Below, in pieces: positions 17,010 to 54,931 of a stretch of 64,000 nt of DNA. Source of the stretch: a virus. Under the pieces are notes generated by a model. The model was not told where the DNA came from and did not search any database. It saw nothing but the letters and a program-made list of their open reading frames with translations. Location: positions 64,001 to 128,000 of the IMG/VR virus record IMGVR_UViG_3300047994_000087; one strand, 5' to 3'. Each line of letters opens with the position of its first letter. The first letter of the stretch is position 1. Position numbers and translations under genes: made by a program.

Positions 17010-17097
17010 TGGTGCACACGGCTAGATTTGAACTAGCGAACCCTTTCGAGATGGAGGTTACAGCTCCACTGTTTTAACCAGACTCACACACGTGTAC
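17010..17097 (-). tRNA. tRNA-Tyr(GTA)
   Basis: Cloverleaf; anticodon loop CTGTAAC; long variable arm; CCA encoded. Confidence 0.92.
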
Positions 17098-17098
17098 A

Positions 17099-17174
17099 TG
17101 GTGCCATCGGTCAGTAACGATCTGACTTCTCGCCGTCTTCAGCGGCATGTGTTGACCTCAATCACCACAATGGC
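17099..17174 (-). tRNA. tRNA-Phe(GAA)
   Basis: Anticodon loop CTGAAGA; CCA encoded; atypical T-loop ATCGTTA. Confidence 0.88.
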
Positions 17175-17177
17175 ATA

Positions 17178-17259
17178 CGGAGTAATGAGGGTTCGAACCT
17201 CAGACCCTTGCGGGCAGAACCTTTAGCAAAGGCCACTCTCGACCAACCGAACTTACTCC
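17178..17259 (-). tRNA. tRNA-Ser(GCT)
   Basis: Anticodon loop TTGCTAA; long variable arm; no encoded CCA. Confidence 0.88.
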
Positions 17260-17263
17260 AAAA

Positions 17264-17352
17264 TGGCGGACACGGTATGGGTATGATCCTACAACCCCTT
17301 TCAGGGCACTCGGGTTCAAACCGAGCTGGCCGTCCAATTTGCCTTCGTGTCC
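17264..17352 (-). tRNA. tRNA-Ser(TGA)
   Basis: Anticodon loop TTTGAAC; long variable arm; CCA; irregular T-arm. Confidence 0.85.
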
Positions 17353-17358
17353 AAAAAA

Positions 17359-17431
17359 CCCTGAAGACGGGGGTTGCTCCCGCTTCCTCCCCATAGACAG
17401 TGGGGTGACTCTGCTGTACGTCTGCTTCAGG
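17359..17431 (-). tRNA. tRNA-Asp(GTC)
   Basis: Anticodon loop CTGTCTA; acceptor CCTGAAG/CTTCAGG; no CCA. Confidence 0.82.
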
Positions 17432-17432
17432 A

Positions 17433-17504
17433 TGGCGCAGCGCGAAGGAATCGAACCTTCTTCTGCGGTTTTGGAGACCGCTTGCCCACCATGGGCTGCA
17501 CTAC
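17433..17504 (-). tRNA. tRNA-Trp(CCA)
   Basis: Anticodon loop CTCCAAA; GTTCGATTC T-arm; CCA. Confidence 0.9.
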
Positions 17505-17506
17505 AT

Positions 17507-17583
17507 TGGTGCCCTACCCCTGATTCGAACAGGGATACACCTCTTTCTAAGAGAGGGGAGTGTGCCAATTCCTCAAGTAGGGC
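17507..17583 (-). tRNA. tRNA-Leu(TAG)
   Basis: Anticodon loop CTTAGAA; short variable loop; CCA. Confidence 0.9.
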
Positions 17584-17596
17584 ATAAATAATCACT

Positions 17597-18247
17597 TTAA
17601 GCAACTCCTAACTTCTTTGCTCTCTTATGTATAGCACTGTCAGATACGCCATACATCTTTCCAATTGACACTACAGTATTGTTAGCAAGCAAGTCCTCCA
17701 GCTCTGCTTTAGTCACCTCAAACTTCTTCAACCAAGGTTTATCAAAATTTCTCGGCTTATTGCCGGGAATTCTAACCTGTTTTTTATTTGCTCGTGTTCG
17801 TGCCGTTTTCAAAGCATGACAGTTAGCGCATAGAATCTCTAAATTATCTAAACGACAATCTTCAGGATTACTATTTTTGTGGTCCCCTTCCAAAGGGACT
17901 TTATCGCCCATCCACTCCGTTATTCCACAGGACTCACACATTTCCTGTTTGATTCCCTCTTTTATAAGTCGCTTCCTAAGAGTGTGGGACTTAATACTGC
18001 TTGGGCACACTAGATAATGATCAATAGCACGTTTAGACCCTAAAACCTTACTTTTAGCCCATCCTAATCCTGTGAAGTGAGAAAAATCAACGCCAAACTC
18101 AATGGCCCTCTTCTTCGCGTATGATTCAGAACCAGAGTAGGGTTTTAGCCCAATCTTCTGACATACTTCTCTCCAACAAGACGATGAAGAAACGTGGTCT
18201 TCTAGCAATTCCTTAGAATAGACAATTCTTGACACAAGCTTACCCAC
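17597..18247 (-). CDS. HNH homing endonuclease inserted in the tRNA array
   Basis: CESC...DHKNSN...NLEILCANCHA HNH/Zn motif plus C-terminal HTH; probable GTG start at 18247 (or 18235) because the upstream frame overlaps tRNAs. Confidence 0.88.
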   Translation of the reverse strand: MGKLVSRIVYSKELLEDHVSSSSCWREVCQKIGLKPYSGSESYAKKRAIEFGVDFSHFTGLGWAKSKVLGSKRAIDHYLVCPSSIKSHTLRKRLIKEGIKQEMCESCGITEWMGDKVPLEGDHKNSNPEDCRLDNLEILCANCHALKTARTRANKKQVRIPGNKPRNFDKPWLKKFEVTKAELEDLLANNTVVSIGKMYGVSDSAIHKRAKKLGVA

Positions 18248-18264
18248 AACAATGCCCTCTATAA

Positions 18265-18342
18265 TGGTGCCTCTTCTCAGATTCGAACTGAGACCTTGAT
18301 CCGTCTTGAGCGGAGCGCTTCTGCCAATTGAGCAAAAGAGGC
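18265..18342 (-). tRNA. tRNA-Leu(CAA)
   Basis: Anticodon loop CTCAAGA; short variable loop; CCA. Confidence 0.9.
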
Positions 18343-18345
18343 GTA

Positions 18346-18421
18346 TGGAGCACGTTGTCAGATTTGCACTGACGCATATCCGCTTTGCAGGCGGGTGCAT
18401 TACTGTCTTTGCTAAACGCGC
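18346..18421 (-). tRNA. tRNA-Cys(GCA)
   Basis: Anticodon loop CTGCAAA; U73; CCA. Confidence 0.9.
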
Positions 18422-18424
18422 ATA

Positions 18425-18499
18425 TGGGGTGAGTGACGGATCTTGAAACCGCATTACCTAGTTCACAACCAGGGGTCCTAGCCTTTAGACGACACTCAC
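18425..18499 (-). tRNA. tRNA-His(GTG)
   Basis: Anticodon loop TTGTGAA; C73; CCA; the base at -1 is T, not G. Confidence 0.9.
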
Positions 18500-18503
18500 A
18501 ATT

Positions 18504-18574
18504 CTGGTCCTGAAGGTAACGCTCCTTCTTCTCTTGCGTCAGAGGCAAGCGCGATGCTAGTACGCCAAGGACCA
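18504..18574 (-). tRNA. tRNA-Gln(CTG)
   Basis: Anticodon loop CTCTGAC; U1-A72; no CCA. Confidence 0.85.
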
Positions 18575-18625
18575 ACGAAATTGCCTGGTCGGCTCTCTCG
18601 TTATGATGTCGCTGTCGGTATGAAA

Positions 18626-18700
18626 TGGATGAGGAAGTAGGACCTGCCCCTACCACTCCTGCTTCAAAGGCAGGCACGTTTCTAACTACGCCATTCCTCA
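18626..18700 (-). tRNA. tRNA-Gln(TTG)
   Basis: Anticodon loop CTTTGAA; U1-A72; CCA. Confidence 0.88.
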
Positions 18701-18748
18701 ATATGCTGATGACAGCAACATCAGAGGTTTGGTTTTGTTGTCGGAAAA

Positions 18749-18824
18749 TGGAGGTCCAGGCACGACTTGCACATGCACCAGCGCTCTTATCGGGAGCGTG
18801 TTCCACTATTTGAACTACTGGACC
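18749..18824 (-). tRNA. tRNA-Ile(GAT)
   Basis: Anticodon loop CCGATAA (C33); CCA. Confidence 0.85.
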
Positions 18825-18826
18825 AA

Positions 18827-18901
18827 TGGTCCGAGATGCACGAATTGAACATGCTTGATCCTGCTCCCAAAGCAGACGGCCAGCCAATGGCCCAATCCCG
18901 G
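18827..18901 (-). tRNA. tRNA-Pro(TGG)
   Basis: Anticodon loop TTTGGGA; CCA. Confidence 0.9.
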
Positions 18902-18904
18902 TCG

Positions 18905-19375
18905 TAGAGCTGTTAAGCTCTGGGGTTTGGACTAATTCGCGGTCGGTTGAAAAATTTAGAGAAGGCATTGCCTGAATTTCCTACATTGTTGATAGCTACG
19001 CTGCACAGCGATAATGACGACCAGCTAAACTGGCAATCGCTTTGGAGGCTATAATGTAGGGACAAATTCACTGGAACTATTTCCTTTTAAACTAAACCTT
19101 TAGTGGCTGATCTTACGTGTAGCGCCTAAAGGCATCTGCAAACTAATCTATCACAGAAGCTGATCACTTGCAAATTTGTTTGCATTTTTGAAAACACAAA
19201 CTAGATGCTCATACTTTTAATCACTTTCAAAATCAAATCCCATAAACCGATCTGCGTCATCATTACTACTAAACTCAAGGAATGTGCGTAAAGGCTCAGA
19301 CCAATGAATGCAGTCGTATTCTATTTTGCCATCTAGGTTTCTCCATTGCTCAGAGCAGGGGAGAATGACCTGTGT
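18905..19375 (+). ncRNA. candidate ~470-nt structured ncRNA
   Basis: Nested long-range helices, with G-U pairs only on the + strand; no ORF. Confidence 0.5.
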
Positions 19376-19389
19376 CTCTTGCGTTATTC

Positions 19390-20157
19390 TCACAACGTCT
19401 CCTCGTAGAGTTTAGTTGTCTCCAGTACGAGAGCAGGCAATATCTTTACTGGATCACAGGCATACAAACCTGCAACGTTGACGCTGCCAGTTTCAAGAAT
19501 CCGATAGCCATCTCCACCATCGCAAACATCCAGCACGTAAACTGGGGGCAATCCAGGATACATTGGGACCGACTCTGCAAATTCTTTTACGGTCTCTTCA
19601 ACGCCAGCTTCTATGTGACGCTTTCCATCCCTTCTATAACAACAAACATCGAGGAGTCTTCCTTGGTGCATAAAGCATCTCCATTCATGCCGAATCTTAT
19701 AGGCTGGAGCGGCAACAACCAATGTTGAAGGCTGCACCTGATATCCATTGAATAGTCTCTCAAAATCTTCATAGCAATAGACGCCACCGTTGAAAAGCTT
19801 GTCGTTAGTGTCTGGACGTAGGAAAAGGTCTCTATCAACAAGCACCCCTTCTCTATCCCAACCCCATCTCTCCATTAAAGTCCCAGCTGGGAGCATGATA
19901 TACTCCTGATTGAACAGAAATTTATGCCAATACCCTGCATAGTCTTGAAACCTCAGAGACTTCCAAGGGGTCAAATGGAACACATGGTTTTGAACCTGCT
20001 TAGTTACGCCGATACTTGCGTGCAGCAGTCCGTAATTCTCATAGCGAGCAGCTTCTGTAGTCGGAAGAGTGTTTACCTCAACTTCCAGCCCAAGCTTTTC
20101 CGCCGCCTCTTTGACCAGAAGGTCTTCTGGAAGGAAATGTTCAAGTAACCATTTCAT
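19390..20157 (-). CDS. ATP-grasp domain protein (DUF4343/R2K-like)
   Basis: FLRP...KLFNGGV, EWRCF, YVLDV, ILETGSVNVAGLY. Confidence 0.82.
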   Translation of the reverse strand: MKWLLEHFLPEDLLVKEAAEKLGLEVEVNTLPTTEAARYENYGLLHASIGVTKQVQNHVFHLTPWKSLRFQDYAGYWHKFLFNQEYIMLPAGTLMERWGWDREGVLVDRDLFLRPDTNDKLFNGGVYCYEDFERLFNGYQVQPSTLVVAAPAYKIRHEWRCFMHQGRLLDVCCYRRDGKRHIEAGVEETVKEFAESVPMYPGLPPVYVLDVCDGGDGYRILETGSVNVAGLYACDPVKILPALVLETTKLYEETL

Positions 20158-20954
20158 TTCTTCATTCCTTCCTCCAGCGTCACATAGCCATGCTTGATCG
20201 CGATTAGTCCTGTGGACATAAGCGGAAGGAAAGCAGACCTTATCTCAAACTCCATCAGCTCAGGATGAGCATCGTGCATTCTCCGCACCAACGTGTCCAT
20301 CTTGAACACTCCAAAAGGAGTGAGCATTTCCAATATTTCTTGTTGAAGGCTCATCTCATTTTCTCCAACACTTTCTATCTCCAGGGTCATTGAAATCAGC
20401 AGCCATAGGCTCTTTATCCCACAAGTCTACAAGCTCTTTTACTACAGGGAGGGCTTCCGCTTCGTAATCAACCATGGCTTCGATACTCATCTTGATCGCC
20501 CTCCGCAGCTTCCTGCTGGTCTTGGCCTGCACCCACTTATTGGAAAACTTCTTTCCACACACGCCAATGTGTTTTTCATTGTAGTTTTTATGAGAGCGAC
20601 TCACTGCTCGCACAGCCTCCAATCAATCTCATCTTCAAATTTCAGGGCTACTTTGTAAGCGACACCCCCATACAGACAGCTACAATCATTAGACTCTGAG
20701 TCATTATCATATTGATCATCAGTGCTACCGCCATTCTCGTAGAAGAATTGCCTGCGATTACAATCACACGAAGCGCTGCCTTCTTCCCACCAAAATAGGG
20801 TGGTGCCCTTTGTCACGCCTGGATAATCCATGTTGTGATCATACTCAACCTGAGCACCGTCAGCAGTTCTTGTAATTCTTACTTGGTATTTCATAAAACC
20901 GCTCCAGCAGTCAACATCTTTAGACTACTGGAGTTTTCATACGCATCTTGTAAA

Positions 20955-21029
20955 TGGTTCCACTAGACTGGATCGAACAGTCATCAGACCCTTATGAGAG
21001 GTCGGCCTTAACCATTAGGCGATAGTGGG
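20955..21029 (-). tRNA. tRNA-Met/Ile2(CAT)
   Basis: Anticodon loop CTCATAA; C1xA72 mismatch; CCA. Confidence 0.88.
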
Positions 21030-21036
21030 ATAAAAA

Positions 21037-21111
21037 CTGCGAGAGAGGGCCACGATCCCCCAACCTTCTCCTTAACAGGGAGTTGCTGCCACCTACTTGA
21101 GCTATCTCGCA
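21037..21111 (-). tRNA. tRNA-Asn(GTT)
   Basis: Anticodon loop CTGTTAA; no CCA. Confidence 0.85.
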
Positions 21112-21118
21112 ATATAAA

Positions 21119-21189
21119 TGCTCCATGTTGGTACTGCCCCAACAAATCTTCCTTGTAAGAGAAGCGTGATACTTTTTCACCAACAGAGC
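21119..21189 (-). tRNA. tRNA-Val(TAC)
   Basis: Anticodon loop CTTACAA; no CCA. Confidence 0.85.
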
Positions 21190-21192
21190 GAA

Positions 21193-21264
21193 TCGGCTGC
21201 ATACGAGTTGCACGTATACCAAACTTCTTAAGAGGAAGGTGTCCTGCTATTAGACGAGCAACCG
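21193..21264 (-). tRNA. tRNA-Lys(CTT)
   Basis: Anticodon loop CTCTTAA; no CCA. Confidence 0.85.
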
Positions 21265-21267
21265 AAA

Positions 21268-21342
21268 TGGCCCCCACACTTGAAGTCGAATCAAGACCCT
21301 TTCCTTCGTAGGGAAAGATGCTATCCATTACACTATGCGGGT
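21268..21342 (-). tRNA. tRNA-Arg(ACG)
   Basis: Anticodon loop CTACGAA; CCA. Confidence 0.9.
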
Positions 21343-21343
21343 A

Positions 21344-21419
21344 TGGCCTTCCTGGAGAGATTTGCACTCCCGTAAGCCCGCTTAGAAGGCGGGTGCCCAA
21401 TCTACTAGACCACAGGAAC
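21344..21419 (-). tRNA. tRNA-Arg(TCT)
   Basis: Anticodon loop CTTCTAA; CCA. Confidence 0.88.
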
Positions 21420-21420
21420 A

Positions 21421-21495
21421 TGGTGGGTTGTGATGGTTCTGCCCCATCATCAAACTGCTTAAAAGGCAGGTGTCTTGCTGTTAGACCAACAACCC
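21421..21495 (-). tRNA. tRNA-Lys(TTT)
   Basis: Anticodon loop CTTTTAA; CCA. Confidence 0.88.
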
Positions 21496-21516
21496 AAATA
21501 GTTTTTAAATTTTGAA

Positions 21517-21590
21517 TGGTAGGGTGCACGGGGATCGAACCCGTTTTACCTAGTTGAAAGCTAGGGTTCCGACCAATAGAAGAGCACCCC
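21517..21590 (-). tRNA. tRNA-Glu(TTC)
   Basis: Anticodon loop CTTTCAA; CCA. Confidence 0.9.
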
Positions 21591-21591
21591 A

Positions 21592-21666
21592 TGGAGCCGA
21601 TGGACTGGTACTGCCCCGTCGCTTCCACATTACAAGTGTGGTTTGCTACTTTTACAACACAACGGC
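21592..21666 (-). tRNA. tRNA-Thr(TGT)
   Basis: Anticodon loop CTTGTAA; CCA. Confidence 0.85.
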
Positions 21667-21672
21667 AAAAAA

Positions 21673-21747
21673 TGGTGGAATGTCCGAGCTTTGCTCTCGG
21701 CTCTACTGATTGCAAGTCAGTGGTTTTACTGAATAAACTAACACCCC
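21673..21747 (-). tRNA. tRNA-Ala(TGC)
   Basis: Anticodon loop CTTGCAA; G3-U70; CCA. Confidence 0.9.
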
Positions 21748-21950
21748 AAGTATCAGGCGCTAGCTCGTGCGTTCTTAGTAGAGGCGCTCTTTGTAGTTCG
21801 CTCTCGTGTCGTGTTTGTAGTTGTTGTAGAAATAGCATGAGTAGTAGGTTCCAGAATAGGTGTGCAAACGTTAGCGACAGGCATTACCCGTCTGCTATTT
21901 CGTTTGACATTTATCCTTACAGTACTCACGTGTTTAGGTCCTTGAATAAA

Positions 21951-22025
21951 TGGAGCGGTCTGTGGATCTTGAAACCACATTCTCTGCTTGGAAGGCAGTA
22001 GTCTTAGCCTTTGGACGAAGACCGC
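21951..22025 (-). tRNA. tRNA-Gly(TCC)
   Basis: Anticodon loop CTTCCAA; U73; CCA. Confidence 0.9.
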
Positions 22026-22293: not shown

Positions 22294-22331
22294 AAAACAA
22301 AAACGCTCCTGAAGGACTACTTCAAGAGCGT
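22294..22331 (-). terminator. rho-independent terminator
   Basis: ACGCTCTTGAAG/CTTCAGGAGCGT stem followed by TTTTGTTTT on the - strand. Confidence 0.7.
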
Positions 22332-22367
22332 AAATGTGATTACTAGATGTACCTAGATTTAATCCGA

Positions 22368-22859
22368 TTACTCAACTTTCCAATCAGACACGCCATCACT
22401 CAGGAAGGTTTTTGTAGTGGTGGTTGCAATAGTGGTTGAACCAGCCGCACCCCCAGCTACCGTATCTGTTCCATTGGCAACTGCCATAGTTACAGTACTA
22501 GACCCTGAATTGTGGATATGTATTTCCGCACCCACACCAGCAGTTGCAGCGGATGGCAAAGTAGCCGTACTAGCTGAACTTGAGGTTTCATAGAACGATT
22601 GACCAGCTTTAGCTGTAAATGATCCAGCCTCACTTGTTACAGCTGTAAAACGACCCTGAAAACCAAGATTACCTTGAACAAGAGTCAACGGAGCTGCTAC
22701 TTGTACAGGGAAGATACTTCCATTAGGAGCAGTAGTTCCAATAAGAACTTGAACTCCGCCATCATACTGAGCCTTAACGATTCCAGCGCCAACCAAAGAC
22801 AACACTGCTGCGGCCACGACCGCGATTACATTCTTTCTTCCTAGCTTCATTCTATTCAC
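22368..22859 (-). CDS. exported or virion beta-rich protein
   Basis: N-terminal hydrophobic signal ending VKA; T/S/G-rich body with TLPSA..G and SDG..W motifs seen in fibre-associated domains. Confidence 0.55.
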   Translation of the reverse strand: MNRMKLGRKNVIAVVAAAVLSLVGAGIVKAQYDGGVQVLIGTTAPNGSIFPVQVAAPLTLVQGNLGFQGRFTAVTSEAGSFTAKAGQSFYETSSSASTATLPSAATAGVGAEIHIHNSGSSTVTMAVANGTDTVAGGAAGSTTIATTTTKTFLSDGVSDWKVE

Positions 22860-22894
22860 CCCAAATAACTAACTACGCTCTGAACTGTTCAATA

Positions 22895-22976
22895 TGGTGG
22901 AAATGCAGGGTTCCGCCCCCTGGTCCAACGAGTTCCACAGTGGGTTTTACTCATTGTCGACTGCTATTACATCCCC
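22895..22976 (-). ncRNA. mini-tmRNA (tRNA-like domain only)
   Basis: GGGGATGTAATAGCAGTCGAC 5' end and GGAC-CAGGG..CCCTG-CATTTCCACCA 3' end; G3-U70; no D-stem; only 29 nt between the two halves. Confidence 0.75.
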
Positions 22977-23343
22977 ATTGTGGCTCTTGCTTACGGGAGC
23001 CAATCGTTATGCTGCCTTAGAGTTTCAGTCATAGGAGTTGCAGCCTCCCAGCTTCAATGATTGCAGGTGTGTTAGCTACTCACTCTGACGGCTTCCTGCC
23101 AGCCGCTTATCCTGGCTTGAGTTACCCCAAAGGGATTCAGAGGCGGTGATAAGACTTACCAGACCCTGGAGATCTTTCATTCATAGGACTGCATCCAGGG
23201 TATCTGATGTATTTGTATCACCCATGTTTGATGCTTCTTTATTTTGCTCTGATCAACATCAAGACTGTCTATGTTTTCTAAAAGCACACACCATCTTCTG
23301 TGATGTGCATATAGTTAATTATGCGTGCGACAATTAATAGACC

Positions 23344-23556
23344 CTACTTTTGCCCTGCTTTGCTCCGAATCAAACTATCCAGAGTACTTGCCGCATGGTC
23401 TATGTACACAGCAACCTTATCCAACCCATCAGCAGCATCCTTGTCGTCCTGGTAGGTAAACGAGTACCCTTTTGCAATATCCCTTGCAGCCTCCAATCGT
23501 CTTTGCAGGGTGAGCAAATATTCGTAGCGCTCCAATAAATCTTTTGCCCTACTCAT
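23344..23556 (-). CDS. MSRA-leader protein
   Basis: MSRAKDLLE leader. Confidence 0.7.
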   Translation of the reverse strand: MSRAKDLLERYEYLLTLQRRLEAARDIAKGYSFTYQDDKDAADGLDKVAVYIDHAASTLDSLIRSKAGQK

Positions 23557-23921
23557 ATCCCTAGCCTGTGTCTAATTATGCTCTCGTAGTCATATCCATC
23601 ACTGCCTACTTGCGCTTTGACTTCCCATATCCCTGCATTGTCTTTGTTGATAAAGAAGCAAGCCCAATAGTTGGGATCTAATCCCTCACATTCCATGAAT
23701 CCGTCGTGAGTCATTTTGTAAGATTCCCAAATGTACATAGTGCTCTTGTCAGTACAAGGACGTTCCAGTAAACAGCGGAGTCTGTCATACCCATGATCAA
23801 GTCGCACTTCTGTAAGAGCGCGATCTATAGAACGAGCATTGACCGACACACGAATCTTCTCCGCTGTCCCCACGTCCAACATCTCTACTGATTCTAGGAT
23901 GTGTTTTACTCTACTCATCAT
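23553..23921 (-). CDS. MSRA-leader protein
   Basis: MSRVKHILE; shares MY.W.SY..TH motif with 23911-24504. Confidence 0.7.
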   Translation of the reverse strand: MMSRVKHILESVEMLDVGTAEKIRVSVNARSIDRALTEVRLDHGYDRLRCLLERPCTDKSTMYIWESYKMTHDGFMECEGLDPNYWACFFINKDNAGIWEVKAQVGSDGYDYESIIRHRLGI

Positions 23922-40363: not shown

Positions 40364-42316
40364 TTAGATTTTAACTCTGAGTGTTCTGGTGAACTTACCT
40401 TCTACCTTAACTACCATACTGGCTCTCTGTGTCTCAGAGAATCCCAATCCAGACAACTGGTTAGGGTTATCTTCGATCTTCAGCTTGCCTCCAACAATCT
40501 CGAACACCTTACGGTGCTGGTCGAACTCCTGTTTCAGGAACTCATTAAAGAACGGACGCACAAACTCATCAGACAGGCACTTCTCCAGCATGAACATGTA
40601 GTGCTTGTTTCCTACCGGCTTGTCCCAGTGATTAGGCGATAGAAGTATCTTAGTCACTTTATGGAACTGGTTGGTCTTTACCCCCCATTTCTCACGAGAT
40701 ACTACGTTCGACTTACTCTCTCCTGCGAACTTAAGTCCGTCTGTTTTCGAATACTCAAACTTGGCGATTTCAAATGTGCCACCGTTGTGTGGATTTGTCT
40801 TAGAATCGAAGTCGAAGGTCTCACCATTGCACTCAATCTGCACAACAAATCCTTGATAGGTTGTCTCACGCTTGTTGTAGTTGTTTACTAGGACAGTATA
40901 AGTCCCTTCCTTCATGCGACTCTTATTTGTCCAGATTATGTTTTCTACTGGAGTCCTCGAACGTCCGTATCCAGCATTCATATCCACGTCTAAGGTACCG
41001 GAAGTAGGGCTGACTTTGCTCATGTAGCTAATCACGTTACCACCTGGTTCTTTGACGTGTATATCCAAGTCATCAAAGTTGTGCCATGACAGAGAAGTAC
41101 GCAGCTCTCCTACAACGTTACCACCAGCCTCTTTCACCCGCTCTTTGATGGAGTCCGTGACTGCGCCGGTATAACTCCAGGAGAAGCTATTGTCCCACTT
41201 GAACATGGAAGGAGCTTCTGGATTCTGCGCTGCCACCAATGATACGAAGTTGTTCTGATGAGAGTTCTCCAGCAGTATTGACACGCTTTTAGCGTGAGGC
41301 ACTACGTTGGCCAGGAAGTCTTCAATGCCAATCTCTTCGATCTTCGAAAACGATTTAGGGTTGACGATAGTGTCTTTGGCCACCTGGTCGAACACATCGG
41401 TTAACACTTGTGGGCGGTCCTGGAATAGCACGTCACACGCTCTGATGTCAGTCTCAATAGCGTATCTGCGCTCCAGAGATTCCAACAATCCAAGTGCCTT
41501 GATCTTCTCTTTAGCCTCTTCAGCCATGCGCGGAGTAACCAAAGATGTAGGTCTCTTGTAGTTGGTAGGCGCCACAACTCTTTCGAACTTAGTCACAGCG
41601 GTATCTAGATCAACTCCAGCACTAAGATCAATCAATAAGGTTCCTATTGCGGTGTTTCTGATACGAGACACCACAGTGCCAGCTTCCTGAGAAGTGGCCC
41701 AGCTGTATGCTTCTTGAGTCAGTAGATGCTCGAACGTAACCGGTTCAGGAGCTAGTCTCTTGTACTGACGTTGGAGCAGAACGAACTTATTGAGGATCGG
41801 TTCGAACTCTTTGCCCCTATAGAGTGAGTTCTGACTGATAAGCTCCAACACTGTCTCAGTAGCGTCCAAGGTCAGCTCATCTAAGCTTCTCTGGAGAACA
41901 TTCTTATCGTCACGTGCTTGTCCAAGCTTTGTGGGTAGATCTTTGTTGTCGACTACGAACTTGTTAGGCACCTTGAGATACAAGTGACTCCAGAATACAG
42001 AACGTTTCTCATCAAAGTTTTTGTCTGTTCCTGCCTTGTCAAACACTGAGTAGAACAAGTCTGTAACTGGTCTGCTATGAATGTACGCACTAAGTGCATC
42101 GCTTACAGCTTTAAACATCTCAGGAACGTCCAGGTCGTCCCAAAGGGAGATCACTTTGTTTTCCTTGATGGTCACAATCCCTGAGTACTGACGCAAGAAG
42201 CTCTTACAGCAGTTACATGTATGCTCCTGCCGGTATGCTTCAGGGAACGCATTGATGTAAACGTCCCACACTTCATCCCCGTCAACCGCGACATAGAATA
42301 GTCTGTCTTTAGACAT
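40364..42316 (-). CDS. conserved large phage protein with YfaP/DUF2135-like domain
   Basis: HTCNCCKSF, RIRNTAIGTLL, VAPTNYKRP, LSWHNFDDLDIH, LDVDMN, LSGLGFS. Confidence 0.75.
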   Translation of the reverse strand: MSKDRLFYVAVDGDEVWDVYINAFPEAYRQEHTCNCCKSFLRQYSGIVTIKENKVISLWDDLDVPEMFKAVSDALSAYIHSRPVTDLFYSVFDKAGTDKNFDEKRSVFWSHLYLKVPNKFVVDNKDLPTKLGQARDDKNVLQRSLDELTLDATETVLELISQNSLYRGKEFEPILNKFVLLQRQYKRLAPEPVTFEHLLTQEAYSWATSQEAGTVVSRIRNTAIGTLLIDLSAGVDLDTAVTKFERVVAPTNYKRPTSLVTPRMAEEAKEKIKALGLLESLERRYAIETDIRACDVLFQDRPQVLTDVFDQVAKDTIVNPKSFSKIEEIGIEDFLANVVPHAKSVSILLENSHQNNFVSLVAAQNPEAPSMFKWDNSFSWSYTGAVTDSIKERVKEAGGNVVGELRTSLSWHNFDDLDIHVKEPGGNVISYMSKVSPTSGTLDVDMNAGYGRSRTPVENIIWTNKSRMKEGTYTVLVNNYNKRETTYQGFVVQIECNGETFDFDSKTNPHNGGTFEIAKFEYSKTDGLKFAGESKSNVVSREKWGVKTNQFHKVTKILLSPNHWDKPVGNKHYMFMLEKCLSDEFVRPFFNEFLKQEFDQHRKVFEIVGGKLKIEDNPNQLSGLGFSETQRASMVVKVEGKFTRTLRVKI

Positions 42317-53779: not shown

Positions 53780-54931
53780 CTAATGCCAGTCTGTGAGTTC
53801 GTCCGCACCCTTTTGGGTCAAGTAACTGTCTGAAATCGCTTTCAATACTTTACGACCATTCCAAGACTGCTTCTCATAAACATCCTTCAGAACTACCCCT
53901 TCCCGTATTTTCTGGCCGCCCACAGTAGAATCTCCTTCCCTCATTGCACTAATCAACGCAGGTGAATAAGTTCCTAGATACAAGAAAGGCACCATAGGCA
54001 ACTCTCTCTCCTCACAGAAGGCCTTGAACTGCTCATAAGGTAAATACTTGTAGTCCACCTTCACGTCATAGACAAACAAGCTGTGCTCTCCAGGTCCATG
54101 CCCGTAGTTGTACTTCGCCTGAACTCCATCACCTACAATCTCCCCATATATTGCTTCATTGGGCTTGAGTTTGCTAGGGATATCGTACTGCTTGGATATT
54201 TTTCCATATATGTCAAAGCCGTAGTACAGCTCACCTCTCTTAGGCTTACGTTGCAGCTGCACATTACGTGACCCATAGCAGAACTGATAGGCGGGCAGTA
54301 GTCCAAAGAACTTTCTGATCTTGTCCCATAACGTCGACGCAACTGAGGGGAACAAACCAGCCCTATATGAGGTTCCATGCAACTTTTCGGAAATATAGAC
54401 TGTGTCTTCATCCGTAAAGATCTGTGGGTAGTTTTTCCAGTTGCTAATGTCGTTATACTTCTGGAAGGCCGGATTGTTTCCAGGCTTCCGTTGTCCGCTT
54501 CCGCCGACCTGCATATGCTGAGGCAGCGAACTAACGGGCGGCTCGTACTTGGTGATCTGAAGAAGCTCAGTAACATCATCCCCCAACTTAGCCTTACTCA
54601 GCGCTGGGTACATCTCAAGCAACTCAGGACTGAAATCGACAATCATGCCTTGGCTGATGGCACCACGAAGTTTGATTGACTTCACACGGCTCTTAGAGAG
54701 AGTGACCTTACTTCCTATTGGGAAGAGAAAGTCCTCCAGTTGCTTAGGGAGCACTGCATCGATGGGAATGTAGATAGTCTTATCGCCCACCTTGTAACGG
54801 GGCTGCCCATCCTCTGTCCTTGAGGTAACCACCCGCCAACCTCTCACTGCAACGCAGTCAAGTCTGTCCGCATTGGGATGTCTCTCAATACTTTCTATTG
54901 CTACCACTTCAACTCTGAAATCGCTTCCCAT
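53780..54931 (-). CDS. RNA ligase, DRB0094 (Rnl2-like) family
   Basis: N-terminal OB fold (HPNADRL, LRGAISQG); motifs EKLHGTS, YGEIVG, YDV, REGVV, LKAIS. Confidence 0.92.
   Translation of the reverse strand: MGSDFRVEVVAIESIERHPNADRLDCVAVRGWRVVTSRTEDGQPRYKVGDKTIYIPIDAVLPKQLEDFLFPIGSKVTLSKSRVKSIKLRGAISQGMIVDFSPELLEMYPALSKAKLGDDVTELLQITKYEPPVSSLPQHMQVGGSGQRKPGNNPAFQKYNDISNWKNYPQIFTDEDTVYISEKLHGTSYRAGLFPSVASTLWDKIRKFFGLLPAYQFCYGSRNVQLQRKPKRGELYYGFDIYGKISKQYDIPSKLKPNEAIYGEIVGDGVQAKYNYGHGPGEHSLFVYDVKVDYKYLPYEQFKAFCEERELPMVPFLYLGTYSPALISAMREGDSTVGGQKIREGVVLKDVYEKQSWNGRKVLKAISDSYLTQKGADELTDWH

Follow-up and report, generated by a model that had tools for sequence, protein, structure and literature searches.

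Bacteria rely chiefly on trans-translation for ribosome rescue and quality control, and this pathway is a drug target. In the standard model, the acceptor of the nascent chain is tmRNA's tRNA-like domain (TLD), charged with alanine and bound to SmpB, and a crystal shows SmpB bound to a TLD fragment of 25 + 34 nt closed by a tetraloop (PMC3985003). A natural molecule of this reduced kind has been described in mycobacteriophage DS6A, whose tmRNA was classed as 'TLD only' (Hudson, Lau & Williams 2014, PMC4131195; tmRNA Website tmID 11587). As relayed in that account, a similar molecule strongly inhibits tmRNA in E. coli, chargeable or not, perhaps by titration of SmpB (PMC4131195, citing Mao et al. 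2009, RNA Biol 6:355). The statement on inhibition is repeated in a 2025 database paper that places DS6A among its 'Standard, no CDS' forms (PMC11915505), and in its tally nine sequences are "standard, no CDS" and phages account for 79 tmRNAs altogether (PMC11915505). Mitochondria and some plastids have tmRNAs without a coding sequence (CDS), which are conserved along with SmpB and presumably assist with incomplete mRNAs (PMC11915505).

The window analyzed here is the whole stretch of 64,000 nt that spans bases 64001-128000 of a 146,741-bp IMG/VR virus record rated complete by CheckV. An original prediction, made from the letters alone, had read an 82-nt mini-tmRNA on its minus strand, consisting of a TLD only, with helix 2 closed by a 15-nt loop. 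The sequence agreed base for base, and every detail of the structural claim was right (Table 1). The genome holds a single copy of this mini-tmRNA.

Table 1. Coordinates of the mini-tmRNA, its parts and its immediate surroundings, in window positions
Feature	Position	Strand	Remarks
TLD-only (tag-less) mini-tmRNA gene	22895-22976	-	82 nt with encoded CCA
Acceptor stem, 5' strand (GGGGAUG)	22970-22976	-	Pairs 7/7 with 22899-22905
Stemless D-loop UAAUAGCAGUCGAC	22956-22969	-	14 nt, 3' end UCGAC
Helix 2a with 15-nt interior	22927-22955	-	22949-22955 with 22927-22933, 7 bp
Helix 2 interior	22934-22948	-	15 nt: AAAA, CC/GG mini-stem (P2b-like), AA
GGAC junction, helix 2a to T-arm	22923-22926	-	Invariant in alignment A1
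T-arm	22906-22922	-	5-bp stem, 7-nt loop GGCGGAA; position 55 is G, not U
Acceptor 3' strand CAUUUCC (U70, U69), discriminator A73, encoded CCA	22895-22905	-	
ACCA 3' end	22895-22898	-	
ORF-free stretch upstream of mini-tmRNA (leader)	22977-23343	-	367 nt
Downstream gene with terminator	22303-22859	-	Longest ORF 22368-22859
Intrinsic terminator, strong	22303-22331	-	12-bp stem, T-run

The acceptor stem of the window element is formed by the seven pairs G1-C72, G2-C71, G3-U70, G4-U69, A5-U68, U6-A67 and G7-C66, and is followed by A73 and a 3' CCA. G3 is an identity base for alanyl-tRNA synthetase (AlaRS). The alanylatable look ascribed to the molecule is borne out by the presence of G3:U70, A73 and the encoded CCA, while charging itself is predicted from these bases. 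The T-arm, with 5 bp and a 7-nt loop directly after GGAC, aligns to the T-arms of the Rfam models RF01849 and RF04321. The D-loop has no D-stem, ends in UCGAC and presumably docks onto the T-loop, and helix 2a places 7 bp where the anticodon stem of a tRNA would be. The element departs from a canonical tRNA (RF00005) in its absent D-stem and in the 7-bp helix that closes a 15-nt loop. An mRNA-like domain with resume codon and tag frame is absent, as had been claimed: only 15 nt separate the two strands of helix 2a, and no tag frame above chance level was found in the flanks. Pseudoknots are likewise absent from the 82 nt. RNAfold reproduced the proposed fold on the 82-nt element and added a 3-bp extension between the D-loop end and the GGAC junction as well as a 2-bp CC/GG stem within the 15-nt loop. 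The folding energy of this lone sequence is ordinary (z = -0.70), so that energy by itself proves nothing and the proof has to be comparative.

We performed three pattern scans of IMG/VR, which returned 72, at least 120 and 112 loci. The matches listed include at least 152 distinct sequences in at least 226 loci with perfect 7-bp acceptor and 5-bp T stems, and 19 different acceptor strands occur among them. The first of these patterns, which leaves the stems free, yielded 29 distinct sequences of 70-97 nt from its 72 contigs, with both stems perfect in all of them; the other two patterns were broader. In an alignment of 29 sequences (A1), 93.4% of cells are paired versus 73% after shuffling, and pairing falls to 45-61% when the partners are slid against each other. 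Changes on both sides were found in 13 of the 19 pairs, with all seven pairs of helix 2a changed in this way across the alignment; the acceptor helix and the T stem are each 100% paired in the 29 members, with 3 covarying pairs apiece. G3:U70 is found in 29 of 29 members with U70 left unfixed by the search pattern, and the D-loop AUAG and the UCGAC are invariant. Among the matches listed, a U55 T-loop goes with a GG D-loop in 90 of 94 sequences and a G55 T-loop with an AG D-loop in 52 of 58 (Fisher p = 7e-29, a value that overstates independence since the sequences are related). This covariation between D-loop and T-loop supports a predicted tRNA-like elbow.

The interior of helix 2 is also conserved: an A-rich loop on the 5' side leads into a short C/G stem, and 1-3 nt bulge out on the 3' side. 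Among the matches listed, 84 of the 102 members with 26-33 nt between TCGAC and GGAC (helix 2a included) have the arrangement of the window interior, with the A-rich loop ahead of a short C-rich stem. One lineage (L068:1102-1198, L077 and other 97-nt variants) has an interior that has grown to 45 nt by tandem GUCAC-containing units; the TLD frame is unchanged in these variants, which indicates that the helix 2 interior tolerates insertions. As a control, the third (112-locus) pattern was applied to bacterial genomes, where most of what it retrieved was high-GC coding sequence with 0-3 T-stem pairs, and the pattern therefore does not impose the structure. The window element is neither a chance match nor an assembly deletion. 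The loss of a full-length ssrA during assembly, named at the outset as a way in which the prediction could fail, is ruled out by the same architecture in at least 226 independent contigs. TLD-only homologs in phage DNA, for which a search had been suggested, proved to be many in IMG/VR, with DS6A in addition. A further pattern built on the T-arm core matched 16 viral contigs, of which 3 carry a second TLD-only form and the others apparently a permuted two-piece tmRNA.

The window element is almost certainly a TLD-only tmRNA of the DS6A kind. It shows the features of that type, namely a complete TLD, halves joined by a short hairpin, a length below ~100 nt and a phage genome as its carrier. A covariance model (R1) that we built from 29 distinct family sequences, with DS6A left out, scores the window element at 71.4 bits (E = 4e-15) and recovers the DS6A element (JN698994, 28478-28560, 83 nt) at 47 bits. 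Both RNAs are phage-encoded, 82-83 nt long, and have G3:U70, A73 and a stemless D-loop that runs to UCGAC; in both, helix 2a is closed by an A-rich internal loop with a short C/G stem, and tag frame and pseudoknots are absent. Both phages also encode a tyrosine integrase and an RNA ligase. The two elements differ in that DS6A has a canonical UUCGAUU T-loop, a GG D-loop and an unencoded CCA, whereas the window element combines G4:U69 and an encoded CCA with a GGCGGAA T-loop of the G55 type and an AG D-loop. Their genomic surroundings are unrelated, with the DS6A element flanked by gp33 and the DNA pol III gene and that of the window upstream of an array of 21 tRNAs in a phage of 147 kb, and sequence identity between them is low. 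The TLD-only kind is already described, which the original prediction overlooked, so the element is less novel than it would otherwise have been. The RNA ligase gene of the window phage lies at 53780-54931 on the minus strand (phrog_968, E = 1e-64) and that of DS6A is RtcB-like; the co-occurrence of ligase and mini-tmRNA is anecdotal.

Other described systems share parts of this design. The CDS-less organellar tmRNAs, found in jakobid and oomycete mitochondria (RF02544) and as ~65-bp forms in Mallomonadaceae plastids (PMC11915505), resemble the window element as TLD-only RNAs without a tag frame that are presumably still SmpB partners. They are, however, the sole tmRNA of their compartment, in mitochondria usually with a permuted gene, whereas the phage RNA is an extra beside the full host tmRNA. 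Full-length phage tmRNAs, including two-piece forms such as that of the marine myophage Melnitz (PMC9004378), are phage-borne and ssrA-derived like the window element. Its GGAC, T-arm and CCACCA are nearly those of permuted phage tmRNA genes and are the source of its only Rfam signal, but the permuted genes keep a coding piece, a tag frame and pseudoknots, whereas the window element has contiguous halves joined by a 15-nt loop. The same design was used in the synthetic TLD of T. thermophilus (25 + 34 nt, UUCG, PDB 2CZJ; cited in PMC3985003), in which a short loop across helix 2a links the 5' and 3' tmRNA ends, and which suffices for SmpB binding. That RNA is a laboratory construct without CCA, whereas the window element occurs as a gene in nature, and its conserved helix 2 interior is longer.

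Standard annotation tools pass over this RNA. ARAGORN called 19 tRNAs at 17010-22025 on the same strand and left the window mini-tmRNA uncalled, and it was also blind to 38 family loci. Rfam at gathering thresholds reported tRNAs only and no mini-tmRNA. A search of the whole genome with RF00023 gave 0 matches, and the mt-tmRNA model RF02544 was unlisted at E <= 10, with 1-2 lower-scoring matches of the same clan suppressed from the output. In permissive searches, RF01849 reached 25.2-25.7 bits against a threshold of 50 and RF04321 18-26 bits (best 26.4) against a threshold of 47, in both cases as partial matches over the 3' half; the GGAC of the window is that of the alpha_tmRNA and tmRNA_permuted consensus. 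RF01849 also took the downstream GGGGUGAAUAGAAUGAA as a second 5' half, as in a permuted two-piece gene. We rejected this candidate because the segment is the ribosome-binding site and start of the next ORF, has no UCGAC and is a worse partner for the 3' strand than the upstream GGGGAUG. The practical gain of the analysis lies in annotation, as ARAGORN and the curated thresholds of Rfam overlook the window element. Against the nine 'standard, no CDS' entries of the curated tmRNA database stand at least 152 distinct sequences from three IMG/VR pattern scans. The TLD-only type is common yet unannotated in phages, and its true abundance is under-recorded. The interest sits in this family, of which the window copy is one more member.

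The family is found in at least five unrelated phage gene settings: directly ahead of the large terminase gene; in a replication module, between an SNF2 helicase and a DUF2800 exonuclease with a Gp2.5-like SSB; between a Mu-F-like minor head protein on one side and scaffold and major head genes on the other; within tRNA arrays; and, in this phage, upstream of the 21-tRNA array. No neighbor protein is common to the five contexts, which means that any partner must be host-derived. SmpB, full tmRNA, Pth and ArfB are all absent from the CheckV-complete genome of the window phage, and its RNA therefore needs host factors.

Minis of the G55 type were also found in four bacterial genomes, three of them Bacillota MAGs (Clostridiaceae, Tissierellia, Bacillota) and one a Marinilabiliaceae MAG. 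All four keep a full-length tmRNA as well, and the mini is thus an addition and not a replacement. The T-loops of these host tmRNAs are canonical UUC, whereas the resident minis are G55-type, so the mini has not been newly copied from the host TLD. Searches with RF00023 produced end-to-end, mini-size matches in the four genomes that stay below the cut-off of 47 bits, for example 81 nt at 44.2 bits on the mini contig of one genome (G001) and 75 nt at 45.5 bits in another (G004); these matches are presumably the minis.

Several side observations concern hosts and origins. The same 81-nt mini occurs in viral contig L005 and in a Clostridiaceae MAG (L262) that has a full tmRNA, an identity that provides a host lead for the lineage with the mini between minor head and scaffold genes. 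Reading a host from the alpha-type T-loop was rejected, as the four genomes with G55-type minis belong to Bacillota and Marinilabiliaceae and have UUC host tmRNAs. Pattern matches in Sphingomonadales and other Alphaproteobacteria (L255-L258, L265, L271, L285, L293 and similar) were likewise discarded, being acceptor pieces of normal permuted tmRNA with a chance UCGAC hairpin. Ahead of GGAC these pieces carry AUAAA, a small hairpin and AAUAG, an interior much like that of helix 2 in the minis, and this similarity may hint that some minis stem from two-piece tmRNA genes.

At the window locus, the 367-nt stretch upstream of the mini-tmRNA contains no ORF in any frame, no repeat found elsewhere in the genome, no Rfam match, no sigma-70-like promoter and no significant fold (z = -1.10). 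A structured RNA in this stretch was rejected on the Rfam result, the z value and the lack of genome repeats. A 6-bp hairpin is present at about 22981-23002, with its end 4 nt ahead of G1. We also considered a hidden tag frame upstream (N-S-K-A-A-stop, ~45 nt before G1) and dismissed it as chance, since Ala-Ala-stop is not enriched there: it occurs upstream of 5.8% of the family loci among the matches listed versus 5.1% of control windows. On the other side, the likely ATG of the downstream gene is at 22850, after a GGGGUGA ribosome-binding site, with an alternative GTG at 22859. The 35-44 nt between the CCA and these start codons hold no terminator, and the mini-tmRNA and the downstream gene probably form a single transcription unit. 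A promoter-like site lies ahead of the tRNA array.

The phage has 21 tRNAs, nearly all with an encoded CCA. Two of the tRNA genes on the minus strand (21119-21189 and 21424-21495; RF00005 scores of 41.8 and 47.7 bits) are missed by ARAGORN, and both have G55-type T-loops. Across the array at 17010-22025 (minus strand), at least 9 of the 21 tRNAs have non-canonical T-loops (NGC, G55), namely Cys, both Gln, Ile, Lys, Arg-tct, Ala and the two genes missed by ARAGORN, and the remaining tRNAs are canonical; Phe and Asn have ATC loops. The G55-type tRNAs carry AG and not GG in the D-loop, which is the elbow variant of the mini-tmRNA. The tRNA-Ala at 21673-21747 (minus strand) has both G3:U70 and G4:U69, as in the mini-tmRNA; among the matches listed, G4:U69 is found in only 9 of 152 family members. 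A tyrosine integrase domain (G000:C1:62652-63161, 89.5 bits) sits in an open frame of ~450-480 aa about 1 kb before the window start, and hints at a temperate lifestyle of this 147-kb tRNA-rich phage.

On balance, we favor the reading that the mini-tmRNA is a competitor of host tmRNA, for SmpB and, in its charged form, also for stalled ribosomes, a judgment that includes its identity. The RNA would be transcribed with its neighbor genes and trimmed by host tRNA-processing enzymes, with RNase P acting at G1 and the CCA already encoded. The 82-nt product would fold as the upper half of a tRNA, host AlaRS would charge it with alanine via G3:U70 and A73, and host SmpB would be bound via the D-loop and the helix 2a face. 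With neither resume codon nor tag frame, trans-translation could not be completed on it. The RNA would then vie with host tmRNA for SmpB and, as an Ala-TLD-SmpB-EF-Tu complex, for stalled ribosomes, and ssrA tagging and proteolysis would be lowered during infection. The analysis establishes the sequence with its structure and covariation, its place in the family, and the lack of both a coding part and a phage SmpB; processing, charging, SmpB binding and inhibition are carried over from the literature by analogy. On the other side, the invariance of G3:U70, taken together with the inhibition independent of charging as relayed in PMC4131195, suggests that the RNA may act on the ribosome and not by simple SmpB titration alone. 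The G55 elbow of the window element differs from the canonical UUC T-loops seen in four host tmRNAs and lends no support to tight mimicry of the host TLD. A natural and widespread class of phage RNAs confined to the SmpB- and AlaRS-binding end of tmRNA would provide ready-made inhibitors or re-wirers of trans-translation, and a new entry among phage takeover tools. The two functions put forward in the original prediction, an SmpB/EF-Tu decoy and a tag-free rescue RNA, correspond to the two readings of the literature.

Strict conservation of the alanine identity set (G3:U70 in 29 of 29 members without being forced by the pattern, with A73 and CCA in the window element) suggests that charging matters, which makes tag-free rescue the main rival of competition. 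Here the Ala-TLD with host SmpB and EF-Tu would enter stalled ribosomes and take over the nascent chain, and the peptidyl-Ala-TLD would drop off and be hydrolyzed by host Pth. This would free the ribosomes and keep phage proteins from being tagged for degradation, as has been suggested for mitochondrial tmRNAs without a CDS. We consider this possible, though on the doubtful side. It would fit the heavy investment of the phage in translation, with 21 tRNAs and an RNA ligase, and the conservation of CDS-less organellar tmRNAs with SmpB (PMC11915505). Against it, the phage itself has no Pth or ArfB-type hydrolase. To our knowledge, there is also no release step for a peptidyl-TLD without a stop codon. 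The one experiment cited in the account of PMC4131195 is the inhibition of tmRNA independent of charging. Rescue and competition are moreover compatible, as the same molecule would suppress tagging too. An elaboration of the rescue reading, which strikes us as rather unlikely, sees a charged, ribosome-active factor that releases untagged chains with host SmpB and, as its second part, an adaptation in the G55/A18 elbow. The mini-tmRNA shares this elbow with about half of the tRNAs of the phage. U54 and U55 are the targets of TrmA and TruB and are absent from its T-loop, and the elbow may make phage tRNA-like RNAs independent of, or invisible to, host enzymes directed at the T-loop or defense nucleases.

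Readings in which the RNA has no part in trans-translation fit the data poorly. An acceptor/T-arm minihelix suffices for recognition by RNase P, and the element could in principle be a processing or stability signal, with RNase P or 3'-end cleavage cutting or stabilizing a polycistronic transcript. Several lineages indeed place the mini between protein genes of one operon, ahead of terminase or between minor head protein and scaffold, and in the window the next gene starts 35-44 nt downstream with no intervening terminator. We give such a signal only a small chance, because it would leave unexplained the AUAG..UCGAC, the GGAC, G3:U70 and the helix 2a/P2b interior, as well as the end-to-end RF00023 matches in four genomes that we attributed to the minis. 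The least probable reading by far is a relic, either an ssrA copy that has decayed or an attP-type piece of host tmRNA in a temperate phage. tmRNA genes are common integration sites, the phage encodes a tyrosine integrase, and the T-arm core of the element is that of two-piece phage tmRNA genes. An attP core, however, comprises the 3' part only, whereas here both TLD halves are present and perfectly paired, and the integrase is not adjacent but ~24 kb from the mini-tmRNA, with no tRNA-like sequence or attP beside it; both observations argue against an attP fragment. Decay is contradicted by compensatory changes over at least 152 distinct sequences from unrelated phages, which point to purifying selection on the fold, and by flanks that lack pseudoknot or tag-frame remnants and have Ala-Ala-stop at chance frequency.

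No close relatives of the window phage were found by blastn of window positions 22300-23800 against 50,697 phage records, by searching two neighboring proteins in IMG/VR, or by a window-specific pattern in JGI metagenomes. The sole clue to wider kinship is a 650-aa phrog_1735 protein encoded at 40364-42316 on the minus strand, which has 46% identity to proteins of ~143-kb Klebsiella/Escherichia myophages, and whose relatives are partly annotated as DNA-directed RNA polymerase.
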